This document shows positions 27,094 through 40,847 of a DNA stretch of 64,000 bases, in pieces (positions within the stretch are counted from its first letter, which is position 1; the number at the start of each line of letters is the position of its first letter). The notes beneath the pieces were generated by a model. That model ran no database searches and was not told where the DNA came from. It saw only the letters and a program-made list of their open reading frames with translations. This DNA comes from Armatimonadota bacterium (GTDB taxonomy: Bacteria > Armatimonadota > SYMT01), in contig JAWLHY010000019.1 of assembly GCA_041690135.1 (NCBI GenBank), forward strand, positions 43,639 to 107,638, read 5' to 3'. Position numbers and translations under genes: made by a program.

Positions 27094-27855
27094 TCAGTCC
27101 CAGTAACCGGTGGACGGGTTGGGGCCCACGATGCCGTCGGAGTTGTAGTCGAGGCCAGCCATGGGCGGGGCCATCGCCTCGCTGGCGGGCACGAGGGCCG
27201 TGTTAGTCACGAGTTGGTGACGCATCCACTTGGCATGCCCGTCCGCAAAGCCGTAGTTGGCGCCCTCGTTGTGCCGGCGCGCATTGATTCGGCCTCCGTT
27301 TTCTCCCGTCCATCCGCCGGTGCGGGTCTGCGGCTCATCCGCTGGGAAGCTGAGCCGGCGGCCATCGTGCCGCGCGCCGGTGCTTCCCGTCGGGATGATG
27401 AAGGCCAGCGCCTGGTTCACGTCGTTGATGCCGTTGGCGTCCGCAAACACCGGGGTCTGAACTGGCAGCGGGATCTGAGCCATGATGCGTCCGCTGCTGC
27501 CCAGGGGAAAGTTGTAGGCGTAGCCCTGAGCGGCCTGCAGACTGGGGCACCGCAGGATCTGGACGTTCTTGACGTAGGGCTGGATCAGGCGGTTCCAGGG
27601 GAAGGCCCGTCCCCCCGAGCCACCGTCGTGCGAGTAAGGGATCACTGTTTCGTCGTAATCCTGGGTGTACATCTGCCAGCCGGTGGTGAGCTGCTTGACG
27701 TTGTTCATACAGGCGGACTGCCGGGCCGACTCGCGGGCCTTAGCGAAAACGGGGAACAGGATCGCGGCGAGGATGGCGATAATGGCGATCACTACGAGCA
27801 GTTCAATCAGGGTGAAGCCGCGGCGGGAAGCCGGGGAGGTGCGCAAAGCGGTCAT
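27094..27855 (-). CDS. Prepilin-type N-terminal cleavage/methylation protein (DUF1559, H-X9-DG)
   Basis: [35 protein letters not shown]...C..N.KQ; [17 protein letters not shown]. Confidence 0.92.
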
Positions 27856-28082
27856 TCTTCTCTCTTCGGTGAGCGAGCGCACCCGTCCGGGTGCGGTTGA
27901 AATAGGGGCCCCGAGGTATCCCTTGCCAGCGGGCTCGCAATAAGGACGATGGTGGGGACAGATCGGAGCAGGCGGTGTCCAATTCTTAAGGACGGATTGC
28001 GGTCAAAAGAGTTCACTTGTCCACGGTTGGACTTCAGCGAAGCGGCTGTGGGGGAATGATTGAGGTGGGGAAGCAGAAATGC

Positions 28083-28114
28083 AAAACGGAGCCCCGGAAG
28101 GCTCCGGAGCTCCG
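28083..28114 (-). terminator. Intrinsic terminator (minus strand)
   Basis: cggagccccgga-aggc-tccggagctccg hairpin followed on the minus strand by TTTTGCATTT. Confidence 0.7.
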
Positions 28115-28144
28115 ATATACGTAAAGGCACACTTCGACCGGGTT

Positions 28145-28354
28145 CTACTCCGTGCTATGCACCTGCGGAGTATCGCCGCCGGAGGAGCCCTGGGAGTTGT
28201 CGGCCGGCAGTTCATTTTGCAACTGAGTTGCCGGAACGTCCGCACTTACGGGTGGAGGTGCTTGCTGTCCGCCCTTCATTGCGCCGTAACCGACGCCGCC
28301 CAGGATCAGCAAACCGGCAACGATGGCCACGATCAGTGTCTTTCGGTCTTCCAT
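28145..28354 (-). CDS. Small single-TM protein co-transcribed with the prepilin gene
   Basis: GGAGGA RBS; MEDRKTLIVAIVAGLLILGGVGYG plus a low-complexity tail; begins 30 nt after the upstream stop. Confidence 0.75.
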   Translation of the reverse strand: MEDRKTLIVAIVAGLLILGGVGYGAMKGGQQAPPPVSADVPATQLQNELPADNSQGSSGGDTPQVHSTE

Positions 28355-28384
28355 TGGGTTTCCTCCAGTCTTCCCGGCGTTACG

Positions 28385-29155
28385 TCAGTCCCAGTAACCA
28401 GTCGATGGATGAACACCAACCACCCCATCTCCGTCGTAATCGATGTTGGCCATGGGTGGCGCCTTGGCCTGGCTGGCCGGCACCAATGCCGTGTTGGTCA
28501 CTAGCTGATGGCGCATCCATTTCGCGTGGCCGTCCGCGAACCCATAGTTGGCGCCTTCCTTATGGCGGGCCGCCGCAATACGCCCCTGGTTGTTCCCCGC
28601 CCAACCATTCCCGTTCCGCTGCGGGATTTCATTCGGCCGCGCCAGACGCCGCCCATCATGCCGCGCTCCATTGCTTCCGGTGGGGATGATAAACGCCAGA
28701 CACTGATTGAGGTCGTTGTTGCCGTTGGCATCCGCGAATACCGGCGTCTGCGCCGGAAGTGGCACGCTGGCCAAGGCGCGACCGTTCCCACCCAGAATGA
28801 AGTTGTAGGCGTAGCCATGCCGAGCTCGCAGGCTCGGGCACTGTAGGAGTTGAGTGTTCTTAACGTAGGGCTGGATAATCACTTCCCAAACGAAAGCCAC
28901 CCCACCGGACCCGCCATTAGTCGAGTAAGCGAGCGTCGTTTCGTCGTAATCACCCGTGTACATGGCCCAACCCAGCGTCAGTTGCTTGATGTTGTTCATG
29001 CATGAGGTGGTCCGAGCGGACTCGCGGGCCTGGGCGAACACGGGGAACAAGATGGCAGCAAGAATGGCGATGATGGCTATCACCACGAGAAGCTCGATCA
29101 GGGTGAAGCCTTTTCGGCCCCACCGGGCGCCATTGCGGTGACGCAGTGATTTCAT
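28385..29155 (-). CDS. Prepilin-type N-terminal cleavage/methylation protein (DUF1559, H-X9-DG), paralogue
   Basis: [35 protein letters not shown]; [17 protein letters not shown]; ATG 29155 preferred. Confidence 0.92.
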
Positions 29156-29473
29156 AGATGAGACTCCGACAGTAGCGCAGCTCCCAATTGCGGGGGCGGT
29201 GAACGTGGTTGGATGCGGTCGGAATGTGGAATTCACTATTTTATGAATAGCATCCACTCCGAAATGACTGCATAGGCAAAGTTGTCGCCTCGCATCAGGG
29301 ATAGACTGCCACGGATAGGGTCGACCGCCAAAGACAAGAGGTGATTCCGGGCAATTTGCCCATAAAGATTTCAGCTTGCGAAAAATCTGAAATCAATGCC
29401 GACCATGCAGACTCGCAGCGAAGGCAGGCGGCCGGCTCGACGCGCGCCCGTAAAGCACTTCAACGGCGGAGAG

Positions 29474-30484
29474 TCACGCGGAGGTTTCGGAAGGTTCGAA
29501 CTGGGGTTGGAGGAGGATCCGCCCTTCCGTAAAGGCGAGGTAAAGGAGACCCACAATGATCCAGAGCACGTCCCGGCAACGACGCAGAACGGCGAGAGCC
29601 AGGGCATGTGGAGCGGCGACCCCGAGGATGGGGGCGAGATAGACGTAGCCGCCTTCCTGGGTGCCCACGTTGGCGGGGATCAGGAAGGTCGCCATGTTGA
29701 CGCTGACGATCAGCGCCTCGAAAGCAAGTGCCTCCGAGACAGAAAGTGGAAAGCCGAGCACGTAGGCGCCCGCGAGCATTTCGAGAGCCCCTGCCGCCCA
29801 GCCGAGAAAGAAGAGGGCAAAGGACAGGAGCGATTCGCGGGGGTGGGCGTAGAAGTAGTCCGCGACCCGGCCCCACGTTTCCAGGACCCAGGCGCCGGGG
29901 GAGCGGCGTTTTGGCGCAACGGCTTCTTCGAGTCCGGTGGGGGGAGCAGTCCTACGGGTGCGACGGAGGCGAAGGTCGAGAATGGCCGTCACGATGATCG
30001 CCGCCAGGATCGCTCCCGGGAATGCCGCAAACCCGAGAAAGAAGCCCTCCCGGCCCGGCACTTCCCGGATCGCCAGCACGGCGCCGAGGAAGATGAAGCA
30101 GACCTGGCCGAGCGTCATCAGCGTCTTGGAGACCGCGACGGAGGCGAAGGCGTCTTTCACGTTCGCCCCATCCCTGGCCAGCAAGTAGATTTTGAGGGGC
30201 TCTCCGCCCATGGAAGCGAGCGGCGTCACCTTGTTCGCCGCCTCGCCGGCACGTTGGACCCAGAAAAGCCGGGAAAATGGCACCGGCGCGTGGTCTTCGC
30301 CGAAAACGGCCCGCCAGCCCCAGGTGTCGAGGAGGTAGATGACTGACGTCACCGTGAGGTAAAGAAGGAACCCCCACCCCACTTGAGATAAGGACTCCCG
30401 CACAGTGCCGGCATGTTGGCTGAATAGAAACGCCGTGAGGGCGAGACCGCCCACCAGCAGAATGAACCTAACGGCTTTCAGCAT
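29474..30484 (-). CDS. Flippase-like / lysylphosphatidylglycerol synthase TM domain protein (UPF0104/HpnL-like)
   Basis: Multi-TM; AGEAANKVTP.ASMGGEPLK, IPANVGTQEGG, RRCRD motifs. Confidence 0.85.
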   Translation of the reverse strand: MLKAVRFILLVGGLALTAFLFSQHAGTVRESLSQVGWGFLLYLTVTSVIYLLDTWGWRAVFGEDHAPVPFSRLFWVQRAGEAANKVTPLASMGGEPLKIYLLARDGANVKDAFASVAVSKTLMTLGQVCFIFLGAVLAIREVPGREGFFLGFAAFPGAILAAIIVTAILDLRLRRTRRTAPPTGLEEAVAPKRRSPGAWVLETWGRVADYFYAHPRESLLSFALFFLGWAAGALEMLAGAYVLGFPLSVSEALAFEALIVSVNMATFLIPANVGTQEGGYVYLAPILGVAAPHALALAVLRRCRDVLWIIVGLLYLAFTEGRILLQPQFEPSETSA

Positions 30485-31751
30485 TGGCGGTCCGGAACAT
30501 CGAGAGTTGGATGGCCGAGAAGACGATCCAGAAGACGTGTGAGCCGATCCCGGCCAGCCAGGCCAGCCATTCTAGACGGCCGATCAGCACCAGGGCCACC
30601 ACGATCACCGAGAAGTCCCGCGAGGTCGCTTCGTTGATGACTTTCTCCGTGAGCGTATCCCGGGGGGTGGACTTTACCTGGTCCTCGCTGGAAAGGCGAT
30701 TGGTGGCGGCCAGCGCGGACACCGATCCCGGTTGAAAGCGGCTTTGGAGCTTACCCAGGCCAAAAATGACCAGCACGCACATGACGACCCCGGTGGCGGC
30801 CAAAACACCCAGAGTGGTGGCCAGCGGCACTCCCAACTGCGTCGCAGCAGCCCGCGCGGCGGCCGCGAACACGGCCACCGTCACCACGTTATCCGCCCAG
30901 ACGTCGAGCCAGCTCCCGAATTTGCTGAACTGATACTTGAGCCGCGCGATCTCGCCGTCGGAACAATCGAGGGCGACCGAAAGCTGGAAGAGCACCGCGC
31001 CCACGACCGAGAGCGCATAATCACCCTGCCAGAACAGCCAGGCGGCGAGCATCCCCAGGGAGAAGTGAAGGCAGGTCACCTGGTTGGGGGTGATTGGCAA
31101 GTTAATGACCCGCCGAGTGAACCAGCGAGAAATGTGCCGGTTGAACACGCGGTCGATGTAACCGTCCGCCACACAGGCCAGGTCCAGGTACATTCGCCGA
31201 TCCGCGGCATCTACCGCTTCTTGGCTGTCGAGCCGGAGATAGGCCTCAGGAGAAGCGAGCAGTGGGGAGCTACTTCGAATGAGACGGCGCGCGGCGTCTT
31301 CCGGAGCACCTCCGGCGCCGAGCGCGACCTGCACTTCTCGACCGGGAACAACCGCCGGGCCGGCGCATGGATGGCCGGTAGCGTCGAGCGCCACGGCCCC
31401 CGCTGTCTGCCGCTGCGCTTCGAGAAGCCGTTTCAGAGCGTCTTTTGCCGCCATTACCTGGGGAGAGAGCAGCAGCACGCGGTCGTCATCATCGAAGCGA
31501 GGGAGGTCCTCGGGACGGCCAACGACGGTGAGCGGGACATGCAGTTCCTTCTCGCTCTGCGCCCAGTGCGCGGCGGCCTCCGGGCTCCCGGTCACCAGGG
31601 TTACGTGCTGGGCACCCAGGTGCCACGCCTGCAGGATGGCGCGCCGCACCAACGTGAGACCCGCGAGCCGGGTGTCCGGAGGGATAGGAGAGACCGCGCA
31701 CCCCTCTGGACGGAAGGGGGCATCCGTTTCGAAAACGATGGCTCGGATCAC
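30468..31751 (-). CDS. CDP-alcohol phosphatidyltransferase with a degenerate N-terminal NTP-transferase-like domain
   Basis: ITPNQVT; LDCSDGEIARLK...SKFGSWLDVWAD matches D-x2-DG-x2-AR-x8-G-x3-D-x3-D; GTG 31751 overlaps the upstream TGA. Confidence 0.9.
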   Translation of the reverse strand: MIRAIVFETDAPFRPEGCAVSPIPPDTRLAGLTLVRRAILQAWHLGAQHVTLVTGSPEAAAHWAQSEKELHVPLTVVGRPEDLPRFDDDDRVLLLSPQVMAAKDALKRLLEAQRQTAGAVALDATGHPCAGPAVVPGREVQVALGAGGAPEDAARRLIRSSSPLLASPEAYLRLDSQEAVDAADRRMYLDLACVADGYIDRVFNRHISRWFTRRVINLPITPNQVTCLHFSLGMLAAWLFWQGDYALSVVGAVLFQLSVALDCSDGEIARLKYQFSKFGSWLDVWADNVVTVAVFAAAARAAATQLGVPLATTLGVLAATGVVMCVLVIFGLGKLQSRFQPGSVSALAATNRLSSEDQVKSTPRDTLTEKVINEATSRDFSVIVVALVLIGRLEWLAWLAGIGSHVFWIVFSAIQLSMFRTANAESR

Positions 31752-32455
31752 AGTTCCTTCAGCAACTCTCGCGCTCGTTCCACGTCTTCGGGAAAGTCGA
31801 TCTCCAACCAGGGGAGGTCGTCCACCAGCTCGTAACCGATGTGGCACTCCCGCATCAACGCCGGATAGACCTCTTCGTGTTCGATGCCGTCCCGTCCCTG
31901 CTCCAATGTGCGGCCCAGGAGCTCACGCAGGGTGGAGGCCGCCTCGGCATTGAGTTTCAAGAAGCCGACCGATTCGCCGGTGGTATCGTAACCGGGCTGG
32001 GCGCCGCGGGCGATATCGAGTACCCGGCCGTCGCGTGCCATCAGCATCTGTGCTTCCCCGTCATCGGCCGCCCTCGTGTCCATCAGAAAGCAGTTGGGAT
32101 GCGGCGACCGGACCAGGCGCTCCAGCATTCGCACCGGAAACAACACATCGGCATCCATGATGAGAACGTCGGCATCCAGGGCCTCCCGCGCGCACCAGAG
32201 GGAGAGAATCGCCCCCTTCCGGTACTCCGGATTGTAGACGGTCTTTACTCCCGCTCGGCCCGCCACGGCCCGTTCGATCTGGTCTGCCAGGTGTCCGACC
32301 ACGATCGTGACGTCGTGTACGCCGACTTCATGGAGCGCGTCCAGCATGCGGTCGAGCAGGGAGCGTCCGTCCAGATCCAACAGGCACTTGGGATGTTCGA
32401 CGACGGCGCCGCTGAGTCGCCTGCCTCTCCCAGCGGCCAGGATAACGGCCTTCAT
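31748..32455 (-). CDS. LicC/PntC-like phosphocholine/phosphonate cytidylyltransferase
   Basis: MKAVILAAGRGRRL, PKCLL, YNPEY, MDADVL, GESVGF, WLEIDFPED. Confidence 0.88.
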   Translation of the reverse strand: MKAVILAAGRGRRLSGAVVEHPKCLLDLDGRSLLDRMLDALHEVGVHDVTIVVGHLADQIERAVAGRAGVKTVYNPEYRKGAILSLWCAREALDADVLIMDADVLFPVRMLERLVRSPHPNCFLMDTRAADDGEAQMLMARDGRVLDIARGAQPGYDTTGESVGFLKLNAEAASTLRELLGRTLEQGRDGIEHEEVYPALMRECHIGYELVDDLPWLEIDFPEDVERARELLKEL

Positions 32456-32456
32456 G

Positions 32457-33419
32457 TTAGAAATCGTCCCACCGGCCTAATACGTCGCCCGGCTCCTGTC
32501 CCCGTTCGTTCAGGTAGGTGCGGTACTTCTGGAGAGTATCGTACACGTCGCAGGTGATCAGCAGATTACTTGACCGCCCGGGGGCCGCGGACCAGAGCCC
32601 ATCCGGGTTCCGGTTGGCCAGGAGCCACTGTACTCCCTGGGTGAACTTTTCTTCGTAACGGTGGTCGTTCATGACCAGACAGGCCAGGATCAGGGCGCGT
32701 GTCGAGTCGCAGGTATGGTCCACATCCCCACCGTCCCAGGATCCGTCCTGGTCCATCGCATTCGCCATCAGGTCGAGGCCCTTCCGGGCGGCCTCCGAGT
32801 CTCCCTGGTAGACCACGATCTTGGGGAGGATGTGGGCCGTCCAGGCAACCGGGGAAAGACGTTGCTCCTGCTTGAAGCGCGGGTCGTACCAACCGCCATC
32901 CTCTGCCTGCATGCCGCAAGCGAAAGCGATGCCGCGCTCCACTGCCGATCGCACCCGGTCGGACTCGATCCCGTCGTGGCCGGCCAGCATCAGGGCACCG
33001 AGAGAGATGCTCGTAGAGTCGCTGCGTCCCCACAGCACGTCCAGCCAGCCACCACCCGGCTCCTGCTGCGCCAGGAGATAGTTGACGGCCTTCTGTACCG
33101 CTGCGGTGATCGCCGGGTCCTGGAGTTGCCGGTTGAGCGTGACGAGATTGCGCGTGCAGAACGCGGCCTCGCGGATGCCGCTCTTCTCATCGTTCGAGAA
33201 CTCGCCCCAGCCGCCGTCCTCATGCTGGATCCGGACGAGCCGCTCGCAGGCGTCTCGGGCCATCTCCGCCGCCTTCTCCTGGGCAAGTACGCGCAACACG
33301 TGGTTCGTGGTGTCGAGTGACAGCCGGTCCGCCGCCAGGTCCCATTCCGGTCGCCGCTGCTCCAGGACGGCCAGTCCCTCATGCATAAGATCGTCGATCT
33401 GTCCCACCGTAATCGGCAC
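32457..33419 (-). CDS. Prenyltransferase/squalene-cyclase repeat (QW-motif alpha/alpha barrel) protein
   Basis: Five QW-like motifs: QHEDGGW, QEPGGGW, QAEDGGW, MDQDGSW, RNPDGLW. Confidence 0.82.
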   Translation of the reverse strand: MPITVGQIDDLMHEGLAVLEQRRPEWDLAADRLSLDTTNHVLRVLAQEKAAEMARDACERLVRIQHEDGGWGEFSNDEKSGIREAAFCTRNLVTLNRQLQDPAITAAVQKAVNYLLAQQEPGGGWLDVLWGRSDSTSISLGALMLAGHDGIESDRVRSAVERGIAFACGMQAEDGGWYDPRFKQEQRLSPVAWTAHILPKIVVYQGDSEAARKGLDLMANAMDQDGSWDGGDVDHTCDSTRALILACLVMNDHRYEEKFTQGVQWLLANRNPDGLWSAAPGRSSNLLITCDVYDTLQKYRTYLNERGQEPGDVLGRWDDF

Positions 33420-33422
33420 GGT

Positions 33423-34694
33423 CTAACTCCTTGTCGCGGGCTCGTCCCGCAGGTTCTTGCGTAACTCTTCGTGGATCGAACTGTTGGTGGCCAGCAGCGA
33501 TTGGCCGTTTTCCCGGAGTGGGTACCCCTCAAAGTCCGTGAGCCGGCCCCCGGCCTGCTCGAGCACGAGCGCACCCGCGGCAAAATCCCATTTGCGCGTG
33601 GTATTCCGAACGAAGGCGTCGATGCGCCCGCAGGCCGTGTAGCAGAGCAGGCTGGCCGTCGATCCCATCACCTTCACGCGCCCCTCGCATTCTCGGGCGA
33701 CGCGCTTGAAGATTGCCAGGCCCTCTTCAAGCCGCTGGTGGCGATCGAAATAGCAGTTGACCATCGCCTCGCGCACCGAAAGTACTTCCGACACGTGAAT
33801 TTCCTCGCCGTTGAGCGTGGCGGGTTCTCCCTTCGCGGCCGCGAACAGTTCATCCAGGACGGGCAAGTATACCACGCCGATGGCCGGCTCGCCTTCCACC
33901 CACAGGGCGATGGAAACGGCGAAATAGGGCAGCCCGCGGGAGAAGTTGGTCGTCCCGTCCAGGGGGTCCACGATCCACTGACGCGGGGAGTTGTGTCCCG
34001 ACTCCCCCGCCTCTTCAGACAGGATGTAGTCCTCGGGGTAGACCTCGCGCAGCCGTGAGAGGATCTCCGCTTCCGCGGCCGGATCCGCATCCGTCAGCAG
34101 CGACCGGTCGCTCTTCTCCCGGACACTGAAGGAAGAACCACGGTACTCCAACAGGATCTCCCCCGCCGCCCGCGCCGCGGCAATCGCCGTGTCCAGCTCC
34201 GCTGCGAACCTGGGAGCCACAGATTTCACAGATTGGGAAGGATTAGAAGGGGACGGGAGCGGTGGAGGGCCAGTGCGGCGGAGTTTGGGCGCTTCCCAGC
34301 CAGGATTGTGTTTGTACCGCTGTTGTTGCAATGAGGCGGTTCCGAAGTTGAGGAGCAGCCCGATTTCGCAACCTGTCGCTTTCAGGTAGTTCAGGATCTG
34401 GGCCTTCTCGGTGCCGGAGAGATGTTCCTGCGCCTTGAGCTCTACCAGGACGGTCCCGAAGCAGATCAGGTCGGCACGGTACTTCTTCTTCAGGCGCCGC
34501 CCCTTGTAGTGCAGTGCCAACGGCACTTCGTGCTGCACGGGAATACCTCGGCGCCGGAGTTCTATCAGGAGGGCTTCAAGATACACGGCTTCGAGAAATC
34601 CCGGTCCTAGCTGCCGATGCACCTCCATCGCAGCCCCGATGATGGCGTAAGTCCGTGGATCGTCCTTCTCCGAGTTGCTTTGCTGGGTTCTCAA
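33423..34694 (-). CDS. GxxExxY (PD-(D/E)XK-like) domain fused to an inositol monophosphatase family domain
   Basis: N: IIGAAMEVHRQLGPGFLEAVY, YRADLIC, VELKA, QILNYLK, GLLLNFG. C: SEEAG, WIVDPLDGTTNF, WDFAAG. No stop between them. Confidence 0.9.
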   Translation of the reverse strand: MRTQQSNSEKDDPRTYAIIGAAMEVHRQLGPGFLEAVYLEALLIELRRRGIPVQHEVPLALHYKGRRLKKKYRADLICFGTVLVELKAQEHLSGTEKAQILNYLKATGCEIGLLLNFGTASLQQQRYKHNPGWEAPKLRRTGPPPLPSPSNPSQSVKSVAPRFAAELDTAIAAARAAGEILLEYRGSSFSVREKSDRSLLTDADPAAEAEILSRLREVYPEDYILSEEAGESGHNSPRQWIVDPLDGTTNFSRGLPYFAVSIALWVEGEPAIGVVYLPVLDELFAAAKGEPATLNGEEIHVSEVLSVREAMVNCYFDRHQRLEEGLAIFKRVARECEGRVKVMGSTASLLCYTACGRIDAFVRNTTRKWDFAAGALVLEQAGGRLTDFEGYPLRENGQSLLATNSSIHEELRKNLRDEPATRS

Positions 34695-34737
34695 CTCCCT
34701 CTCCTTCCTTCCAAATCTGTGAAATCTGTGGCTCCCA
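34211..34737. mobile_element. GxxExxY cassette bounded by 32-bp inverted repeats
   Basis: 34211-34242 tgggagccacagatttcacagattgggaagga versus 34706-34737 tccttccaaatctgtgaaatctgtggctccca: 31/32 complementary, built from a CACAGATTT unit. Confidence 0.75.
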
Positions 34738-34744
34738 CCTACTC

Positions 34745-35800
34745 TCAGTCTTGTAGAAGAAGGTCTAAGGCGGTGGAGCGGATATGGGAGTAGCGGTTGG
34801 GGTGGAGGTAGGGCGCGGGGCTGCTGCCGTAGAGGCGGTAGAGCATGGTGAGGGCGGCGTAGCGGCGGAAGCGGAGGGACCAGCGGGTATCCAGGGCGGG
34901 GGCGGTTTCGCGGTAGCCGGCTTCGATGGCGGACGCGGCCGCCTGGGCGGAAGGACGGAGGTTCGGGTCGTTCTCTCCCATCAACAGGTAGTGGCCGGCC
35001 AGGAAGCCGGGATCGTAGGCAGGGTCGGAGACGGCAGCGCCCAACTCGAAATCGAGCAGGAATACCTCCCCCTCCGGTCCGACGCGCACGTTCTTCGGCG
35101 CCGCATCCAGGTGGGAGATCATCCCCTCCCGCTCCGCGGCGCGCGCCTCGTCATAGAGGGAATGGGTCACCTGTTCCGCATCGGCCGGAAGCTCGGCACG
35201 CTGGAGAACCCCGGTTGTCCGCATGCGCAAGAAGCGGAGCCAGTTGGCGTGGTCCTGTTCGCGGGTTGGCCAGAGTGTTTCTTCCCCCAGGCGCACGGTA
35301 TGCACGATGCCGAACAAGCCGGCCAGACGGTAGGCCGCCTGGGGATCGCACTGGTTCTTCTGGAGTGCCGATTGGAGGGAGGTGGTGCGTTCCCCGATCC
35401 GCAGCGTCCAGAGGATGTTGTTCCGTTCGTCATAATGGACGACCTGGGGAACCTTATGACGCACGGGCTCCGGCAGGGCGGTACGGAGCGTCCGAAGTGC
35501 CCGGGCCTCGACCTGGATCCGGGCTGGGGACACATCGGAGAGGTCCTTGCCCAGGCGCTCATGTTCTTTGACCCGCGAGAGCGCTTGTTTGAGAAACACG
35601 GATCCGGCAGGTACGTCTACCCGATAGACGTAGTTCATGACGCCCACGTCGAGATAGGTGATTTCAGCCTCGTCCCACTCTCTCGGTAGTCCCGAATGGA
35701 TTGCAACCCTTGTCTCGCGCAAATAGTTGCGGACTGCCTCCGGTCCCTCCGCCAGCGAGTGAACGGGAACCCAGTCTGGACGGTCTATCCCGGCGTGCAT
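34745..35800 (-). CDS. APH/choline kinase-fold phosphotransferase (methylthioribose-kinase-like)
   Basis: GVMNYVYRV, FLKQAL, HLDAAPKNV, LLDFE, DPAYD. Confidence 0.82.
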   Translation of the reverse strand: MHAGIDRPDWVPVHSLAEGPEAVRNYLRETRVAIHSGLPREWDEAEITYLDVGVMNYVYRVDVPAGSVFLKQALSRVKEHERLGKDLSDVSPARIQVEARALRTLRTALPEPVRHKVPQVVHYDERNNILWTLRIGERTTSLQSALQKNQCDPQAAYRLAGLFGIVHTVRLGEETLWPTREQDHANWLRFLRMRTTGVLQRAELPADAEQVTHSLYDEARAAEREGMISHLDAAPKNVRVGPEGEVFLLDFELGAAVSDPAYDPGFLAGHYLLMGENDPNLRPSAQAAASAIEAGYRETAPALDTRWSLRFRRYAALTMLYRLYGSSPAPYLHPNRYSHIRSTALDLLLQD

Positions 35801-35813
35801 CGTGGGGTCCGCC

Positions 35814-36959
35814 TCAGGCGATCATCTGCAGAACTTCGCGCAGGCCTGCAGCATCCAGGTCCCGGAGGTTGTGGCCGGCACGGTCCGGCGTGTAGCCGTC
35901 GCGCACGCACAACTCGATGCCCTCGGCATCGATACCCAGCTCCGACAGGGACGTTTTTAGCCCGACGCGCTGCAGGAGAACCTGGATCCGCCGGGCGCCG
36001 CTATCGATGCTGTTGCCGCCCGTGGCTCGAGCCAGGGCGGTCATCCTCTCCAGCGAGGCTTCCGCGTTGAAGCGCAACAGTGCCGGCAGGGTAATGCTAC
36101 TCGCCTGTCCGTGGACCACGCCGAAATGCAGGGTCATCGGGTAGGATAGCGAGTGCGCGGCGGCCGTTTTCGTGTTGCTGAATGCGAGGCCGGCGAGCAG
36201 CTGGGCGAAAAGCATCCGGTTGCGATGCCCCAGGTTGTCCGGATGGTTCACCGCGAGCGGGAGCGCCTCGAAGATGCGCCGCACCGCTTCCAGAGCGTAG
36301 GTGTCCGAAATCGGGTTGGCGTTCTTATTCCAGTAGGCTTCCATCGCGTGCGAAAGCGCGTCCATGCCCGTGGTGGCGGTGAAGGCCGTCGGAAGCGTTA
36401 ATGTGAGGCGAGCATCGAGCACGGCATGGGTCGGGTACATTCCCATGCCCTCCATCGAGAACTTCTTCTTCGTTTCCAGGTTCCAGAGGGTGGCCCAGCG
36501 GGTAACCTCACTGCCGGTCCCGGCGGTGGTGGGCACCATCACGGTGGGGAGACTGGGGGTCGAGGTGGAACGCTGCTTATCCAGGATCGGCAGCACTTCC
36601 CCGCCGTTGGGCAGGGTGGCGGCAACCACCTTGGCGGTATCGAGTGCGCTGCCGCCGCCGATCCCCAGGATGATCTCAGCACCATGCTCGCGCGCGAAAT
36701 CCACCGCTTCCTGTGCCTGCGTCACCTCCGGGTTGGGCCGGACCCCGTCGTAAACGGAAAGCTCGCGGTCACCCACCAGGCTCGCGACCTGATCCCGGAT
36801 CCCCAACTCCTGCAAGATGGCCCCGTCGGTGACGAGGGTAACCCGCCGCCCCGGAAGCTCGGCGAGGATTTCCGGAAGCTTCTCCAGGCTGCCGGGACCA
36901 AAGGTGACCTTGACGGGATTCCAGAAACGCGTGGCGAGGTTTTCAGGAGAGATGCTCAT
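35814..36959 (-). CDS. Fe-containing alcohol dehydrogenase, probable phosphonoacetaldehyde reductase
   Basis: GGGSALDTAK, PTTAGTGSEVTRWATLW, DALSHAMEAYW, AFSNTKTAAAHSLSYPMT, HG; phosphonate context. Confidence 0.85.
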   Translation of the reverse strand: MSISPENLATRFWNPVKVTFGPGSLEKLPEILAELPGRRVTLVTDGAILQELGIRDQVASLVGDRELSVYDGVRPNPEVTQAQEAVDFAREHGAEIILGIGGGSALDTAKVVAATLPNGGEVLPILDKQRSTSTPSLPTVMVPTTAGTGSEVTRWATLWNLETKKKFSMEGMGMYPTHAVLDARLTLTLPTAFTATTGMDALSHAMEAYWNKNANPISDTYALEAVRRIFEALPLAVNHPDNLGHRNRMLFAQLLAGLAFSNTKTAAAHSLSYPMTLHFGVVHGQASSITLPALLRFNAEASLERMTALARATGGNSIDSGARRIQVLLQRVGLKTSLSELGIDAEGIELCVRDGYTPDRAGHNLRDLDAAGLREVLQMIA

Positions 36960-38059
36960 GACTTGATTTCCAGGAACGACTCGCGGACGGCGTTCACGAC
37001 GCCGCGGAGGTCATCGGCGGTGAGGGTCCCCAGGTTGGCGATGCGAAACGCCCAGGTTTTGAGGTCCCCCTGGCCGGCATAGATCACGTAGCCGCGCTCT
37101 TTCATGGCATCGTGCAGCGCGTCGTACGACACACCTTCCGGAAGTGGGAAGGTCGTGAGGGTGTTGGACCGCCACTCGGGGGCCACGATCGGCTCCAGTC
37201 CCAGTTCGGCCATTCCCTCGCGGAGCGCCTGGGCCGCCTCCCGGTAGCGGTGGAACCGGTTCTCCAGCCCCTCCTCGTGGGTTTCGAGGATTGCCTGGCG
37301 CAGGGCGAAGAAGACCTGGATCGCCGGGGTGAAAGGCGTGTTATCGGCCTCTTCCGCTTTCCACTGGTTATACAGGTTGAGGTAGACCGACCGGGCCGGA
37401 AGGGAAGCCAACCCCTCCAGGGCTGTACGCCGCGCAACCACGAACGAAAGCCCGGCCATGCCCTGAAGACACTTGTTGGAACTCGAGATCAGGTAGTCGA
37501 TCCCCAGCTCCTTCACATCAAGTGGCTCCCCCGCGAATGAGCTCATCGCATCCACGATTAACGACCGTCCGTGTTTGCGGCAAACGGCCGCGAGCGCTTC
37601 CACGGGATTGAGGAGCCCGGTGGTGGTCTCGTGATGCACCACGGCCAGGTGGCTGAGCGAGGGGTCCTCGGTAAAGGCTCGATCCACATCTTCCGGCCGG
37701 GGCGCTTCCGTCCAGTGGTAGTGGAGCACGTGGTGCTCGATGCCGTGGGCCGCGGCCATCTGGCGGATGCGGTCGCCATAGACGCCGTTGTCGATGACCA
37801 GCAGCTTGCGGTCCCGCGGGACGACGGAGCAGACCGTGGCCTCCACGGCCGCCGTTCCGGAACCGGAGAAGACGACGGTGGACCACTCGTTGCCTCCGCC
37901 GGCCAGACCGGCGATTTCGTCGCGCACCCACCGCATCACGGCAAAGAACTCCGGCTCCCGGTGACAAAGATCCGGCGTGACCATCGCGTTCCGCACCGTG
38001 GGGGTGGTGCAGGCGGGACCGGGGTTCAGGAGGATGTACTCCTTTAACGGCTCACTCAA
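36956..38059 (-). CDS. 2-aminoethylphosphonate aminotransferase (PhnW/AepZ family, class V PLP)
   Basis: LLNPGP, GSGTAAVEA, NGVYGDR, HHETTTGLLNP, DAMSSF, SSNKCLQG, FTPA.Q, IYAGQG. Confidence 0.9.
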   Translation of the reverse strand: MSEPLKEYILLNPGPACTTPTVRNAMVTPDLCHREPEFFAVMRWVRDEIAGLAGGGNEWSTVVFSGSGTAAVEATVCSVVPRDRKLLVIDNGVYGDRIRQMAAAHGIEHHVLHYHWTEAPRPEDVDRAFTEDPSLSHLAVVHHETTTGLLNPVEALAAVCRKHGRSLIVDAMSSFAGEPLDVKELGIDYLISSSNKCLQGMAGLSFVVARRTALEGLASLPARSVYLNLYNQWKAEEADNTPFTPAIQVFFALRQAILETHEEGLENRFHRYREAAQALREGMAELGLEPIVAPEWRSNTLTTFPLPEGVSYDALHDAMKERGYVIYAGQGDLKTWAFRIANLGTLTADDLRGVVNAVRESFLEIKS

Positions 38060-38634
38060 GGTCGGTCTCCGGTAGCGTGAACGGCGGCGGAGAAACGGTC
38101 GCGGATCTCTTCGGGGGTATGCGTGACGCGCCCGGCCTTGAACGGCCCCGTCTCAACCTCAACCTCCGCCAGGATGAAGGTCGGCCCTTCGGTCTCCAGG
38201 CATTCGCGGTATGCGGCGGCCGTCTCTTCCGGCGTCCGGGTGCGCACCGCCCGGGTGTAGCCGGCCGCCTCCGCGATCTTCTCCAGGGCTATGGACTGGC
38301 TCACCGCCGGCTGGTTGCCGGTGCTGGCGTAGACCCCGTTATCGAAGACGATGTGGATCAGGTTCTTCGGCCGGGTGGAGGCGATCATTGCCGTGGAGCC
38401 GAGGTTCATCAGCAGGTTGCCGTCGCCGTCGTAGATCACCACGCGGCGGTCGGGGCGAGAGAGCGCGACCCCCAGGCCGATCGACGAGGCGAGGCCCATC
38501 GAACCAATCATATAGAAGTTGCCGGGCCGGTCGTCCACGGTGAACGAGCGCCGGGAGATGTGCCCGTTGGCGTGGACTACGACCGCATCCCCCAGCAGCG
38601 GCTGCAACGCGCGGATGGCTTCTTCCAGAGTCAT
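38056..38634 (-). CDS. Phosphonopyruvate decarboxylase, beta (ThDP-binding) subunit
   Basis: NFYMIGSMGLASSIGLG, DGDGNLLMNLG, DNGVYASTGNQ; ATG 38634 overlaps the alpha-subunit stop (ATGA). Confidence 0.88.
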   Translation of the reverse strand: MTLEEAIRALQPLLGDAVVVHANGHISRRSFTVDDRPGNFYMIGSMGLASSIGLGVALSRPDRRVVIYDGDGNLLMNLGSTAMIASTRPKNLIHIVFDNGVYASTGNQPAVSQSIALEKIAEAAGYTRAVRTRTPEETAAAYRECLETEGPTFILAEVEVETGPFKAGRVTHTPEEIRDRFSAAVHATGDRP

Positions 38635-39152
38635 TTCGTCACCCCCGCACGCAGCAGCAGCGCCGCGGGAAGACTGTTCTCCCGCTGGTATTCCGTCGCC
38701 CACCGGAGGTCGTCCAGCAGGGTCTCCGGTTCCGGTGTCCGGAAAGGAACTCCAATCGTGTCGAGGAGCTTTCCGGAGATTTCCCCCATGATGATGTGCT
38801 CCGGGGCATCCTTCCCGAGATAGCCTCGCCATGTGATGAGCAGGAGGCACGGGGTCTTGTACATCAGGGTCATCGAAGTGAGGGCGTTGACGCAGACGCC
38901 GAGTCCGGAGTTCTGCATGACGACGACGGGACGACGTCCCGCCATCATCGCCCCGCAGGCCAGTCCCACGGCGGCATCCTCGCGGGTTTCCGCGTAGTAG
39001 TGCACCTCCGGGTCGCGCTCGAGCTCAGCAATGAGACCACTGACGAGGGAGCAGGGTACTCCGGTGAAAAAGTCGTACCCTTGCTCCTTCAGCGCCGCCG
39101 CGAACGCGGTGGGCGAAACGGGGTCGGTTTCGAAGACGGATCCACTTGCCAC
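38631..39152 (-). CDS. Phosphonopyruvate decarboxylase, alpha subunit
   Basis: FFTGVPCS, TREDAAVG, MQNSGLG, ITWRG..GKDAPEH..MG. Confidence 0.88.
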   Translation of the reverse strand: MASGSVFETDPVSPTAFAAALKEQGYDFFTGVPCSLVSGLIAELERDPEVHYYAETREDAAVGLACGAMMAGRRPVVVMQNSGLGVCVNALTSMTLMYKTPCLLLITWRGYLGKDAPEHIIMGEISGKLLDTIGVPFRTPEPETLLDDLRWATEYQRENSLPAALLLRAGVTK

Positions 39153-39161
39153 GGGGATTTC

Positions 39162-40847
39162 CTACTTCTGCTCCGCCCAGGCGCGCCGGTAATCTTCGAA
39201 GGTATCGATCTCGGCCCAGCCCTTGTAGATGTCGACGGCTTGCACGGCATGGCCGCGGTCGATCAGTTCCTGGAGCATATCCGTCAGCTTGGCGGCCCGC
39301 AGCCGGGGCGCTTCCTGGAAGGGAGCTTCCGGATCTCCGGCGCAAGCTTCGGCATAGGCTTCCCGCAGTGCGGCACAGCCCTCCGGCGAGAGCATCATCA
39401 TGCCGATGAACTCCCCGTCGCATTGCTCGCGCGGCAGGTCGTGGCCGATGCGAAGTACACGGTTCCCCTCCTCGCTGGGCAGATAACGATAGCCCACACT
39501 GGGAGGCCGCTCCGTTGCCACCAGGTCTTCGTACGGCCGCTGCCGGCCGTTGCCACTCGCCCGGTGCTCCATCCAGGCGCGGTCCACCACCACGTTGACA
39601 TCACCTTCCGCCTTCAGGAGCTTTTCCAGGATGCCCTGGTCGAAGAGCACGTCCGAGTAAAGGACGACCACCCGGCCCTTGAGCTCCGGCTCGGCACGGA
39701 AGAGGGAATAGAGCTCGCTGGTCTGCTCGTACTCGTCGTTGTCGTAGTAGCGGGGCGTCGTTAGGGTGAAGGCTTCCTTCTTGTAGCCGCGCACCACCAC
39801 GACGTCCTTGATGTTGCAGGCGTTGAGAAGATCGATCTGGCGCTCCAGGATCGACTTACCCTTGATGTCGAGCATCGCCTTGGGGCGCTCTTCGATCAGC
39901 GGGAGTAGTTCGGGCTCGAAACCGGCTGCCACGATCACGGCCGTCACCTTGCCGCCGTCCGCGGGCAAGAACTGCTTCTCCTGGTGGTTCATCTCCTCCA
40001 CGCCGACCAGCCGGTAGACTTCCTCCAGTGGTACCAGCGAGGGCTCCACGTCCGCGATCCGGCGGGTGCGGTGGAGCTCGCCGAGGGTTTGCTGCATCGC
40101 TTTGATCGCGGCGCGCAGGCCGTGGTTGGCGAAGATCACGATCTTGAAGCCGGCCGCGTGGCAATCATCCGCGCTGGCTGTGGGGAAGATCGTCGGCACC
40201 ACCACCAGCGGCGTGTCCCGGTTCCACTGCTGGGCCGCGTGGGCCAACTCGTCGAGGGTCTTCGACTTGGAATGGATCAGGACGGCATCCGCGCCGGCAT
40301 CCGCGTACGCGTGGGCGCGCTTGAGTGCCTCTGCTTCCCCCCACCCCGCAATCAGCGCCTCGGTGCGGGCGATGATAAACGTATCGGGGTCACGCTGGGC
40401 GGCCTTGGCGGCGCGGATCTTGCCCGCGTGTTCCTCCGGAGAAACCAGTTCCCGCCGGGAGCCCGAGTAGAAGCTGCAGCGCTTGGGGAAGATGTTGTCC
40501 TCTAGACAGATCCCCGCGATCCCGGCATCTTCGTATTCCCGGATGGTGCGGACTACGTTCACCGCGTTTCCGAACCCGCTGTCGCAGTCCGCGATGACCG
40601 GGATGTCGATCGCGTGTGCGATCCCTCGGGCTACTTCCAGGTTTTCGGAGAAGGTGAGGATGTTGGCGTCGGGAACGCCCTGGGATGCGGAGATTTCAAA
40701 CCCGCTGGCCCAGACGGCATCGAAACCCGCCTCTTCCACGAGACGCGCACTGAGGGGATTGTGGGCGCCCGCCACGAGGAGCGGCCCGGACCTTCCCAGG
40801 GCCAGTCGCAGCTTGCGTGCGGGTGAATCAGTGGATCGACCAGTCAT
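39162..40847 (-). CDS. pepM: Phosphoenolpyruvate mutase fused to a C-terminal cytidylyltransferase domain
   Basis: GAHNPLSA, WASGF.ISA..GVPD, DCDSGFGN, EDNIFPKRCS, ARTEALIAGWG, LIHSK, IFANH; C-half PKAMLDIKGKSIL, RGYKKE, W.EIDTFEDY. Confidence 0.88.
   Translation of the reverse strand: MTGRSTDSPARKLRLALGRSGPLLVAGAHNPLSARLVEEAGFDAVWASGFEISASQGVPDANILTFSENLEVARGIAHAIDIPVIADCDSGFGNAVNVVRTIREYEDAGIAGICLEDNIFPKRCSFYSGSRRELVSPEEHAGKIRAAKAAQRDPDTFIIARTEALIAGWGEAEALKRAHAYADAGADAVLIHSKSKTLDELAHAAQQWNRDTPLVVVPTIFPTASADDCHAAGFKIVIFANHGLRAAIKAMQQTLGELHRTRRIADVEPSLVPLEEVYRLVGVEEMNHQEKQFLPADGGKVTAVIVAAGFEPELLPLIEERPKAMLDIKGKSILERQIDLLNACNIKDVVVVRGYKKEAFTLTTPRYYDNDEYEQTSELYSLFRAEPELKGRVVVLYSDVLFDQGILEKLLKAEGDVNVVVDRAWMEHRASGNGRQRPYEDLVATERPPSVGYRYLPSEEGNRVLRIGHDLPREQCDGEFIGMMMLSPEGCAALREAYAEACAGDPEAPFQEAPRLRAAKLTDMLQELIDRGHAVQAVDIYKGWAEIDTFEDYRRAWAEQK

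Follow-up and report, generated by a model that had tools for sequence, protein, structure and literature searches.

In the genome of an Armatimonadota bacterium (assembly GCA_041690135.1; 9.1 Mb in 25 contigs, 65% GC), a small gene of the GxxExxY family lies between two inverted repeats inside a biosynthetic operon, and its reading frame continues without a stop codon into that of an inositol monophosphatase (IMPase)-family enzyme. The locus belongs to a 64,000-nucleotide stretch of contig JAWLHY010000019.1 (positions 43,639 to 107,638), referred to below as the window. It raises the question of how a putative nuclease gene became the first domain of a biosynthetic enzyme, and what part the repeats had in it. 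The answer that we consider probable, with real reservations, is that a hairpin-bounded GxxExxY cassette settled at the junction between a kinase-like gene and the IMPase gene, that its stop codon was lost and that the resulting fusion became fixed; the nuclease would recognize the short words of which its own repeats are built.

The cassette and the fusion

The open reading frame (ORF) of the fused gene, on the minus strand, contains no stop between its two domains (the coordinates of all features are in Table 1). The repeats, or arms, are 32 nt each, are separated by 463 nt and are complementary at 31 of 32 positions (97%). The window contains exactly two copies of their 17-nt core, CACAGATTTCACAGATT, which point in opposite directions, and none of 100 shuffled sequences gave any match. 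The TGA of the kinase-like gene is followed, 7 nt further, by the 5′ arm. Near the N-terminus of the IMPase domain the only start-like codons are two GTGs, V156 and V159, both within the 3′ arm; no purine-rich run precedes them, whereas the TTG of the cassette has a strong Shine-Dalgarno (SD)-like run. The original prediction, made from the sequence alone, had described near-perfect inverted repeats around an SD, a TTG and the whole GxxExxY domain, a read-through across the second repeat into the IMPase, and SD-less GTGs inside that repeat as the only starts of the IMPase; the inverted-repeat, ORF and profile analyses agree with it on each of these points. It had also seen neither a transposase nor a target duplication. 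Indeed, the neighbouring ORFs are biosynthetic, Pfam and NCBIfam identify no transposase in them, and the locus does not qualify as an insertion sequence (IS) or a miniature inverted-repeat transposable element; at the outer flanks of the arms no target duplication is visible, the shared sequence being the dinucleotide GG only. A scan of positions 33300-36000 found no promoter-like or terminator-like site, and a search of positions 33000-36000 against Rfam (E ≤ 1) gave no rRNA match, the sole match being a chance one to Histone3. The presence of a nuclease-fold cassette within inverted repeats, fused to an IMPase, is confirmed.

With profile cut-offs of 35 bits (TIGR04256), 22 bits (PF13366) and 27 bits (PF00459), Pfam and NCBIfam recognize PDDEXK_3/GxxExxY and Inositol_P in the fusion protein, and no other family. 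The first domain carries the motif G32-F-L-E35-A-V-Y38, followed by D75 and by E85-L-K87; E35, D75, E85 and K87 are invariant across 31 aligned GxxExxY sequences, while G32 and Y38 each occur in 90% of them or more. The structure model of the domain has a predicted local confidence (pLDDT) of 89.9. Its best Foldseek matches are Cas4 SSO0001, the restriction-endonuclease-like protein 3ijm and the lambda/RecE exonucleases (E of 4e-4 to 3e-3, TM-score of about 0.5); the nuclease domains of AdnAB/AddAB and Hjc are also matched, and all the fold matches have E-values of 4e-4 to 1e-2. The domain is predicted, from this model, to have a restriction-endonuclease-like fold, and the profile scores, catalytic residues and fold matches bear out its earlier description as PD-(D/E)XK-like. 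No match for the domain was found in the PDB by sequence. PADLOC assigns the fusion protein to no family, so that it does not classify as an anti-phage defence protein, and there is no PHROG match either; the GxxExxY domain by itself gave no match to PADLOC or the PHROGs. The IMPase domain scores below the cut-offs of all the NCBIfam equivalogs (HisN, SuhB, CysQ, FBPase/IMPase); its membership holds at the level of the family.

Relatives of the cassette show where a stop codon can be found. In three of the five that were read (L070, L071 and L081) the nuclease ORF enters the 3′ arm in the frame used by the fusion and stops there, after ...KSVKSV, ...KSAQSA and ...KSAQSA, respectively. In all three the stop is a TAA located between the second word of the arm and the outermost one. 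The codons are TCT AAA TCT GTG AAA TCT GTG TAA TCT GTG GAT in L070, and TCC CAA TCT GTG AAA TCT GTG GCT CCC AGG TTC at the 3′ arm of the window. In both window arms the outermost word is replaced by the complementary pair TGGGAGC/GCTCCCA, and the word which bears the TAA is absent. Since the outermost word of the 3′ arm is GCTCCCA, this arm has no TAA and the frame continues into the IMPase. The comparison shows that the arm-borne TAA of the relatives is missing here, and its absence explains the fusion.

The fusion is also found elsewhere. A search for longer proteins with a GxxExxY domain retrieved two orthologues, known here as protein sequences, P0001 (420 aa) and P0002 (477 aa), in which PDDEXK_3 and Inositol_P occur in the same order; they have full-length identities of 68% and 78%. 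Among the three fusions, the GxxExxY domains are 74-78% identical, the IMPase domains 69-85% and the linkers 35-47%, and the linker of P0002, although about 54 residues longer, is still in frame. Residues derived from the arm, ...KSVA(P/G) or ...HSVAP, persist in the fusions, and the GxxExxY motif, D75, E85 and K87 are invariant in all three.

The only syntenic relative among the GTDB representatives, G002, has a stand-alone IMPase of 269 aa, 64% identical and without a GxxExxY domain, together with the same two downstream genes (75% and 73% identity). The candidate starts of this IMPase, a TTG at residue 1 and an ATG at residue 4, align without gaps to V156 and V159 of the fusion. The remnant of an IS66-like transposase lies directly upstream of it (L039 2300-3750), and the cluster is broken there. 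Out of 400 other genomes of the phylum, G002 is also the only one with an orthologue of the kinase, which is on a contig other than that of the IMPase; no exact empty kinase-IMPase junction was found in this set. Among 29 other IMPase loci, none has a GxxExxY or kinase gene within 1.5 kb, and only one is syntenic.

Contigs assembled by Logan from four soil metagenome runs were also searched. Contigs from two studies span the junction between IMPase, arm and GxxExxY domain (X1 record 4, 34066-34308, with 5 differences; X2 record 13, 34164-34314, with 2), which speaks against an assembly artefact, one of the junction-spanning runs being possibly the source sample. No joint that removes or inverts the cassette of the fusion locus was found in the contigs of these four runs; two apparent skips of the cassette have the same arms with unlike flanks, and were rejected as gene-less hairpins of other loci or organisms. 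Sequence comparison thus shows a fusion that is inherited and not an artefact, in which both domains appear to be kept and the linker appears free to vary. The capture of the cassette as an N-terminal domain, as proposed initially, is borne out by the two further fused orthologues and by the stand-alone IMPase of the only syntenic relative.

Words, dispersed arms and related cassettes

The genome of this window contains seven GxxExxY loci. Apart from the fusion, five are full-length genes, all bracketed by inverted arms made of word arrays, and the last is a C-terminal fragment which has retained its 3′ arm. The words of the five paralogous cassettes, repeated every 8-10 nt, are CGCAGAG, CGCCAAG/CGCAAAG, CGCAAAG, CACGAA and ACACAGAG. 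For each of the six words of the genome there is a separate dispersed population, which numbers 22-50 copies at no more than two mismatches (0-16 in reversed controls).

Similar cassettes are found in other phyla. GxxExxY relatives were collected at 52 loci, from Acidobacteriota, Chloroflexota, Pseudomonadota, Planctomycetota, Bacteroidota, Verrucomicrobiota, Thermodesulfobacteriota, Methanocorpusculum and others. Six were omitted (partial match or contig end); in 37 of the 46 that were tested, the best inverted match between the flanks is above those of all 20 shuffles, and the arms are word arrays with a period of 9-10. The GxxExxY cassette is therefore a recurrent and widespread family, and the hairpin-bounded element at gene junctions inside operons that had been predicted does recur, in the five paralogues as in these relatives. 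The same inverted array had been expected next to other GxxExxY genes: arms of the same build are indeed present, but the words are mostly different, CACAGAT being limited to the closest protein relatives. A fusion universal among orthologues, combined with GxxExxY genes devoid of arms, would have refuted the original interpretation; instead, the IMPase of G002 stands alone and the other genes are armed.

Literature searches found no published description of GxxExxY hairpin cassettes. Nothing relevant was retrieved for tandem heptamers with inverted repeats, nor for the combination of intervening-sequence protein, GxxExxY and inverted repeats, and full-text searches for GxxExxY, PDDEXK_3 or PF13366 returned nothing on the function of the family. 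In the excerpted text of one study, PDDEXK_3 is tabulated as having an "Unknown" function, with multiple transfers (PMC3424549), and an excerpt of another mentions the domain merely in passing (PMC8934634).

An empty allele was seen at a sister locus. One paralogous cassette (L006) is located between an ornithine-carbamoyltransferase (OTC)-like gene and argG, and this junction was compared in the genome of the window, G000, and in its family relatives G005, G004, G001 and G006 (loci L124-L128). The cassette is present in G005, where the protein is 69% identical and the word is ACACAGA, and in G004, where the protein is 58% identical and every word in both arms is ACACGGA. G006 has a gene-less nested double hairpin, with ACACAGA as the outer word and CGCCAAG as the inner one, and G001, which belongs to the genus of G006, has a clean, empty spacer of 27 nt. 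The presence/absence allele that the original prediction had called for thus exists at the OTC-argG junction. Orthologous cassettes have changed all their words in concert, from one form to the other (ACACAGA vs ACACGGA).

The arm of the fusion locus is itself a dispersed repeat. Its core has 43 copies in the genome at no more than two mismatches, 29 of which are exact, compared to none for the reversed control. They form three inverted pairs only, the remainder being single arms: besides the fusion locus, there is a gene-less hairpin with a 113-nt loop (C9:152478-152636) and a pair which encloses a gene of a cobW-type GTPase (C4:272670-274400). The TGGGAGC/GCTCCCA form of the outer word is common to most of the 43 arms. 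In 23 of them, a CACAGATT arm follows an ORF in the same direction, the stop of which is at most about 36 nt before the core or lies within the arm; this count is approximate, as it relies on crude, GC3-filtered ORF calls. After several of these arms comes a terminator-like hairpin, or arms of other words. Some arms carry the stop of the host gene (e.g., C14:57487, C1:507643 and C1:833908), either a TAG given by the variant GGTAGCC or a TGA at the end of ...CAGATTGA, and in such cases the arm encodes the end of the host gene. Among the seven GxxExxY loci of the genome, the fused gene is the only one with this word, so that the fusion locus combines what characterizes REPIN/RAYT pairs, a single-copy gene flanked by a repeat and a matching population of dispersed repeats. 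The genome also contains a separate REP-like family, a palindromic repeat of about 38 nt (...GACGGAGTCCCGCTGCGAGGCGGGCCTTCGCGA...) which is clustered in alternating orientation (C1:242632-244033, C1:1171554-1173280 and C5:380882-381254).

The words follow the proteins. When nine word labels are placed on a tree of the GxxExxY domain (40 rows, 34 relatives and six genes from G000; two truncated rows were dropped and arm-encoded tails excluded), 17 changes are needed, compared to a mean of 26.2 for shuffled labels, and none of 200 shuffles is as low. The rows with CAGAT words come from five phyla and are grouped with the fusion gene. The closest GxxExxY relatives, from Pyrinomonadaceae (L070, 62%), Caldilineaceae (L072, 60%), Betaproteobacteria (L071, 55%), Planctomycetia (L076, 55%) and Chloroflexi (L081, 53%), all have C[A/G]CAGAT. 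The end branches amount to 0.24-0.6 changes per protein column, at which unconstrained DNA would be unrecognizable; the word itself is therefore conserved, beyond the complementarity of the arms. One cell contains six genes and as many words, which speaks against a single host factor. These data show an association between gene and word.

The core of the fusion arm was also sought in the genomes of 40 relatives. Sizeable populations exist only in G021 (45 copies) and G037 (19 copies), while six family members have 0-2. G021 also has the best protein match (56%), whose gene is enclosed by CACAGATTA arms of three words and lies just ahead of an argH-like gene. Its arms are mostly close hairpin doublets, as opposed to the single arms after stop codons of G000. 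In G037, CACAGATT-type arms (L160, C19:15400-17900) form gene-less hairpins at the purL/purQ and purS/purB junctions.

The architecture is not restricted to GxxExxY genes. A scan of G000 gave 61 candidate inverted pairs with tandem-word arms, with periods of 6-10, and the loops of five of them encode 23S_rRNA_IVP (PF05635) proteins, for which the genome has eight genes above the cut-off. Proteins of the family known from classical rRNA intervening sequences are thus encoded in cassettes of the same architecture. One of these copies, at C3:996621, is in an open frame of 473 aa and may be fused to its neighbour too.

Known systems and competing explanations

The history that we propose starts from a small PD-(D/E)XK nuclease gene, placed between inverted arms in which a 7-8-nt word is repeated about once per helical turn. 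This cassette would have lodged between the kinase and IMPase genes of a phosphonate/lipid operon, with its 3′ arm ending exactly at the start of the IMPase. In this lineage the outermost word is replaced and the TAA is gone, so that translation from the SD and TTG of the cassette would continue into the IMPase; the two further fused orthologues show that the fusion became fixed and is vertically inherited. By analogy with RAYTs and their REPINs, the nuclease domain may recognize its own word array and make or maintain the dispersed arms, in which case 41 further arms would have the fused protein as their sole cognate enzyme. At the mRNA level, the two arms of the cassette may pair into a long stem which hides the SD and the start codon; translation could then rely on ribosomes coming from the kinase gene or, as in 23S intervening sequences, on a cleavage of the RNase III type. 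The original interpretation as a whole, that of a minimal element inserted at an operon junction and captured as a domain, is partly supported.

The RNA part of this scheme relies on folding. In the predicted fold of a 561-nt segment of the transcript, the arms constitute the closing stem, which is extended by pairing between the SD-containing purine tail and the pyrimidine tail of the 3′ arm. The minimum free energy is −231 kcal/mol, compared to −198 ± 6.8 for shuffled sequences (z of −4.8), and none of 100 shuffles folded as well. The long mRNA stem looping out about 460 nt that had been suggested is thus recovered as a predicted fold.

This anatomy resembles that of the intervening sequences (IVS) of 23S rRNA. 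The IVS of Coxiella, in the excerpted text of PMC4990558, is 428-444 nt long, is closed by a terminal stem of 28 bp that contains one mismatch and a bulge, carries an ORF in its loop and is cut by RNase III; the same excerpt leaves the origin and mobility of ORF-bearing IVS unexplained. As far as this account goes, the IVS of Coxiella and Leptospira and the cassette have in common a unit of 430-530 nt, terminal inverted repeats of about 30 nt with about one mismatch, a loop that carries a small ORF without known function, and an insertion which does not destroy the function of the host transcript (PMC4990558). In G000, moreover, the IVS protein family PF05635 occurs in the same type of tandem-word hairpin. 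On the other hand, the cargo of the cassette is a PD-(D/E)XK GxxExxY protein and not S23p, its host is an mRNA operon junction and not helix 9, 25 or 45 of the rRNA, its arms are word arrays with gene-less copies dispersed in the genome, and its ORF is translated into the next gene. Of the features that define an IVS, the fusion locus has the inverted-repeat stem around an ORF; it is not located in a 23S rRNA helix.

The similarity with REPIN/RAYT systems concerns the genome rather than the transcript. According to the excerpts of PMC3116915 and PMC3337134, these systems also consist of a single-copy gene flanked by its own repeat, with short non-autonomous repeats dispersed for each gene type, and they persist vertically. 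The GxxExxY gene and its repeat population are found together in both G000 and G021. The differences, within the same excerpts, are that the enzyme of the cassette has a PD-(D/E)XK fold and is not an HUH Y1 (IS200/IS605-like) transposase, that its repeats are tandem words instead of one imperfect palindrome, that most G000 copies are single arms just after stop codons, and that the gene family has spread horizontally across phyla. In-frame, selfish, repeat-bounded inserts translated within a host protein are known in Rickettsia, as palindromic elements. The cassette is like them in being translated as part of the host protein, but it brings a complete enzyme domain and its own start, and lies at the N-terminus and not inside the host fold.

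It could be argued that the arms work in RNA alone, as a duplex whose cleavage by RNase III divides the operon transcript, and that the GxxExxY ORF is a passenger whose nuclease is unrelated to them. The Coxiella-like anatomy (in the excerpt of PMC4990558), the 23S_rRNA_IVP genes in the same type of word hairpin and the strong closing stem that is predicted all point in this direction. A duplex alone would however allow compensatory drift, whereas the word is kept at 55-65% protein identity across five phyla, all the words of a cassette change together at the OTC-argG junction, and single arms, unable to form a stem, are the commonest form in G000; we regard such an RNA-level element as distinctly unlikely. 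Even the existence of a cassette may be questioned, if an ordinary GxxExxY gene happened to lie between two independent insertions of a REP-like repeat. The arm is a 43-copy dispersed repeat, mostly away from GxxExxY genes, and one pair of the same arm encloses the ordinary cobW-type GTPase gene. This explanation is disfavoured and has very little chance of being correct, since each of the six full-length GxxExxY genes of G000 lies between arms with a word of its own, as do 37 of the 46 relatives tested, and since the arm encodes the C-terminus and the stop of the ORF in three close relatives.

Several observations weigh against the capture of a word-recognizing cassette that we propose. Arm and gene are co-inherited, so that descent accounts for part of the grouping of words on the protein tree. 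In G037, which has 19 arms of this word, no close cognate gene was detected (the best protein match is 48%). Not every member of the word clade ends at a TAA within the arm: L072, L076 and the cassette of G021 use other stops. Most of the 43 arms of G000 are single and not hairpins, which the REPIN model does not predict. The IMPase may also be initiated independently, at GTG V156 or V159. Finally, some apparent fusions look like incidental open frames: in 16 of 29 long GxxExxY proteins that were scanned, the domain is N-terminal in 12, ten of which have a second Pfam family (IMPase in two, DNA methylase, hexapeptide transferase, DUF1375, and prepilin N_methyl in five), the other two (P0012 and P0017) having none at the threshold. 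P0029 has the same N_methyl stretch, below the per-stretch threshold, which makes six N_methyl cases in 16. A prepilin N-terminal motif placed behind another domain cannot work as a fusion, and an open frame alone is therefore weak evidence.

On this basis the fusion could be functionless, the cassette being real, the IMPase starting from V156 or V159 and the absence of a stop being a tolerated accident. That both GTGs face candidate start codons of the stand-alone IMPase in a gap-free alignment fits this explanation, and at 65% GC about one random codon in 40 is estimated to be a stop, so that a 35-codon linker would be open by chance in about 40% of cases. Yet three diverged orthologues keep the frame across linkers of unlike length, the GTGs lack the SD-like run that is strong at the cassette start, and there is no stop for a coupling of termination and reinitiation. 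An accidental frame is thus unlikely, though it deserves to be taken seriously, and the inherited capture of the cassette is the reading that we retain.

Operon context and significance

The minus-strand neighbours of the fusion (29474-40847) are all biosynthetic, and according to Pfam and NCBIfam they form a cluster of the phosphonate/lipid type. Its composition (Table 1) suggests that the product may be a phosphonate-bearing lipid or glycan. The kinase-like ORF has only weak NCBIfam matches (MTRK, 29 bits; LxmK, 22 bits), and a separate search for related loci that started from it retrieved none. Beyond the cluster, at 27094-29257, the window contains two genes with DUF1559 and prepilin N_methyl; the DUF1559 family is greatly expanded in Planctomycetota.

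Table 1. Features of the fusion locus, of its gene cluster and of the word hairpins with 23S_rRNA_IVP genes; positions are those of the window unless a contig is given.
Feature	Position	Strand	Remarks
5′ arm	34706-34737	-	Inverted repeat; in gene orientation TGGGAGC + CACAGATTT + CACAGATTT + GGAAGGA
SD-like run GGAAGGAAGGAGAGGGAG	34695-34713	-	Purine-rich; part within 5′ arm, abuts start codon; read from sequence
Fused ORF, 423 aa	33423-34694	-	TTG start 34692-34694; GxxExxY domain, linker, IMPase-family domain
GxxExxY / PD-(D/E)XK domain, aa 15-127	34314-34652	-	TIGR04256 142.8 bits; PF13366 (PDDEXK_3) 135.3 bits
Linker, about aa 128-151	34243-34313	-	Pro/Ser-rich; partly encoded by reverse complement of the arm's purine-rich tail
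3′ arm	34211-34242	-	Inverted repeat; in-frame translation ...NPSQSVKSVAP...; contains GTG V156 (34227-34229) and GTG V159 (34218-34220)
Inositol-monophosphatase-family domain, aa 168-417	33444-34193	-	PF00459 (Inositol_P) 214.6 bits
Kinase-like ORF, 351 aa	34745-35800	-	Upstream operon gene; TGA stop 34745-34747
Phosphoenolpyruvate (PEP) mutase	39162-40847	-	Fused to MobA-like nucleotidyltransferase
Two thiamine pyrophosphate (TPP)-enzyme halves	38056-39152	-	ORFs overlapping by about 220 nt
Class-V aminotransferase, Fe-alcohol dehydrogenase (Fe-ADH), kinase		-	Further cluster members, followed by the IMPase fusion
Squalene-hopene-cyclase-like protein, MobA-like nucleotidyltransferase, CDP-alcohol phosphatidyltransferase, lysylphosphatidylglycerol (LPG)-synthase-type membrane protein		-	Cluster members after the IMPase fusion
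23S_rRNA_IVP / four-helix-bundle genes	G000 C2:458340-458961, C3:996548-997178, C6:103175-103884, C6:194790-195342, C12:138955-139685		Within 6-8-nt tandem-word inverted arms

A broader proposal is tentative, and we would rather doubt than expect that it holds in full. GxxExxY proteins would act, in a sequence-specific manner, as the enzymes of a large class of hairpin elements that extends across phyla, with the S23p/four-helix-bundle cassettes and the classical 23S IVS as sisters. In at least some copies the arms would double as translation signals, with an SD after the 5′ arm and a stop in the 3′ arm, which would permit entry at operon junctions without polarity. In the present case, a nuclease welded to a housekeeping-type enzyme would still service about 40 cognate arms.

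GxxExxY/PDDEXK_3 is a very widespread family of unknown function, for which this locus offers a concrete context, that of a gene tied to a word array and to matching repeats. It also connects the family with a puzzle that has lasted 30 years, the nature of the 23S rRNA intervening sequences and of their ORFs. For annotation, it is a warning that such read-through generates long "fusion" genes that begin with a GxxExxY domain. A selfish cassette may turn into a heritable protein domain in a simple way, by losing a stop built into its own repeat.

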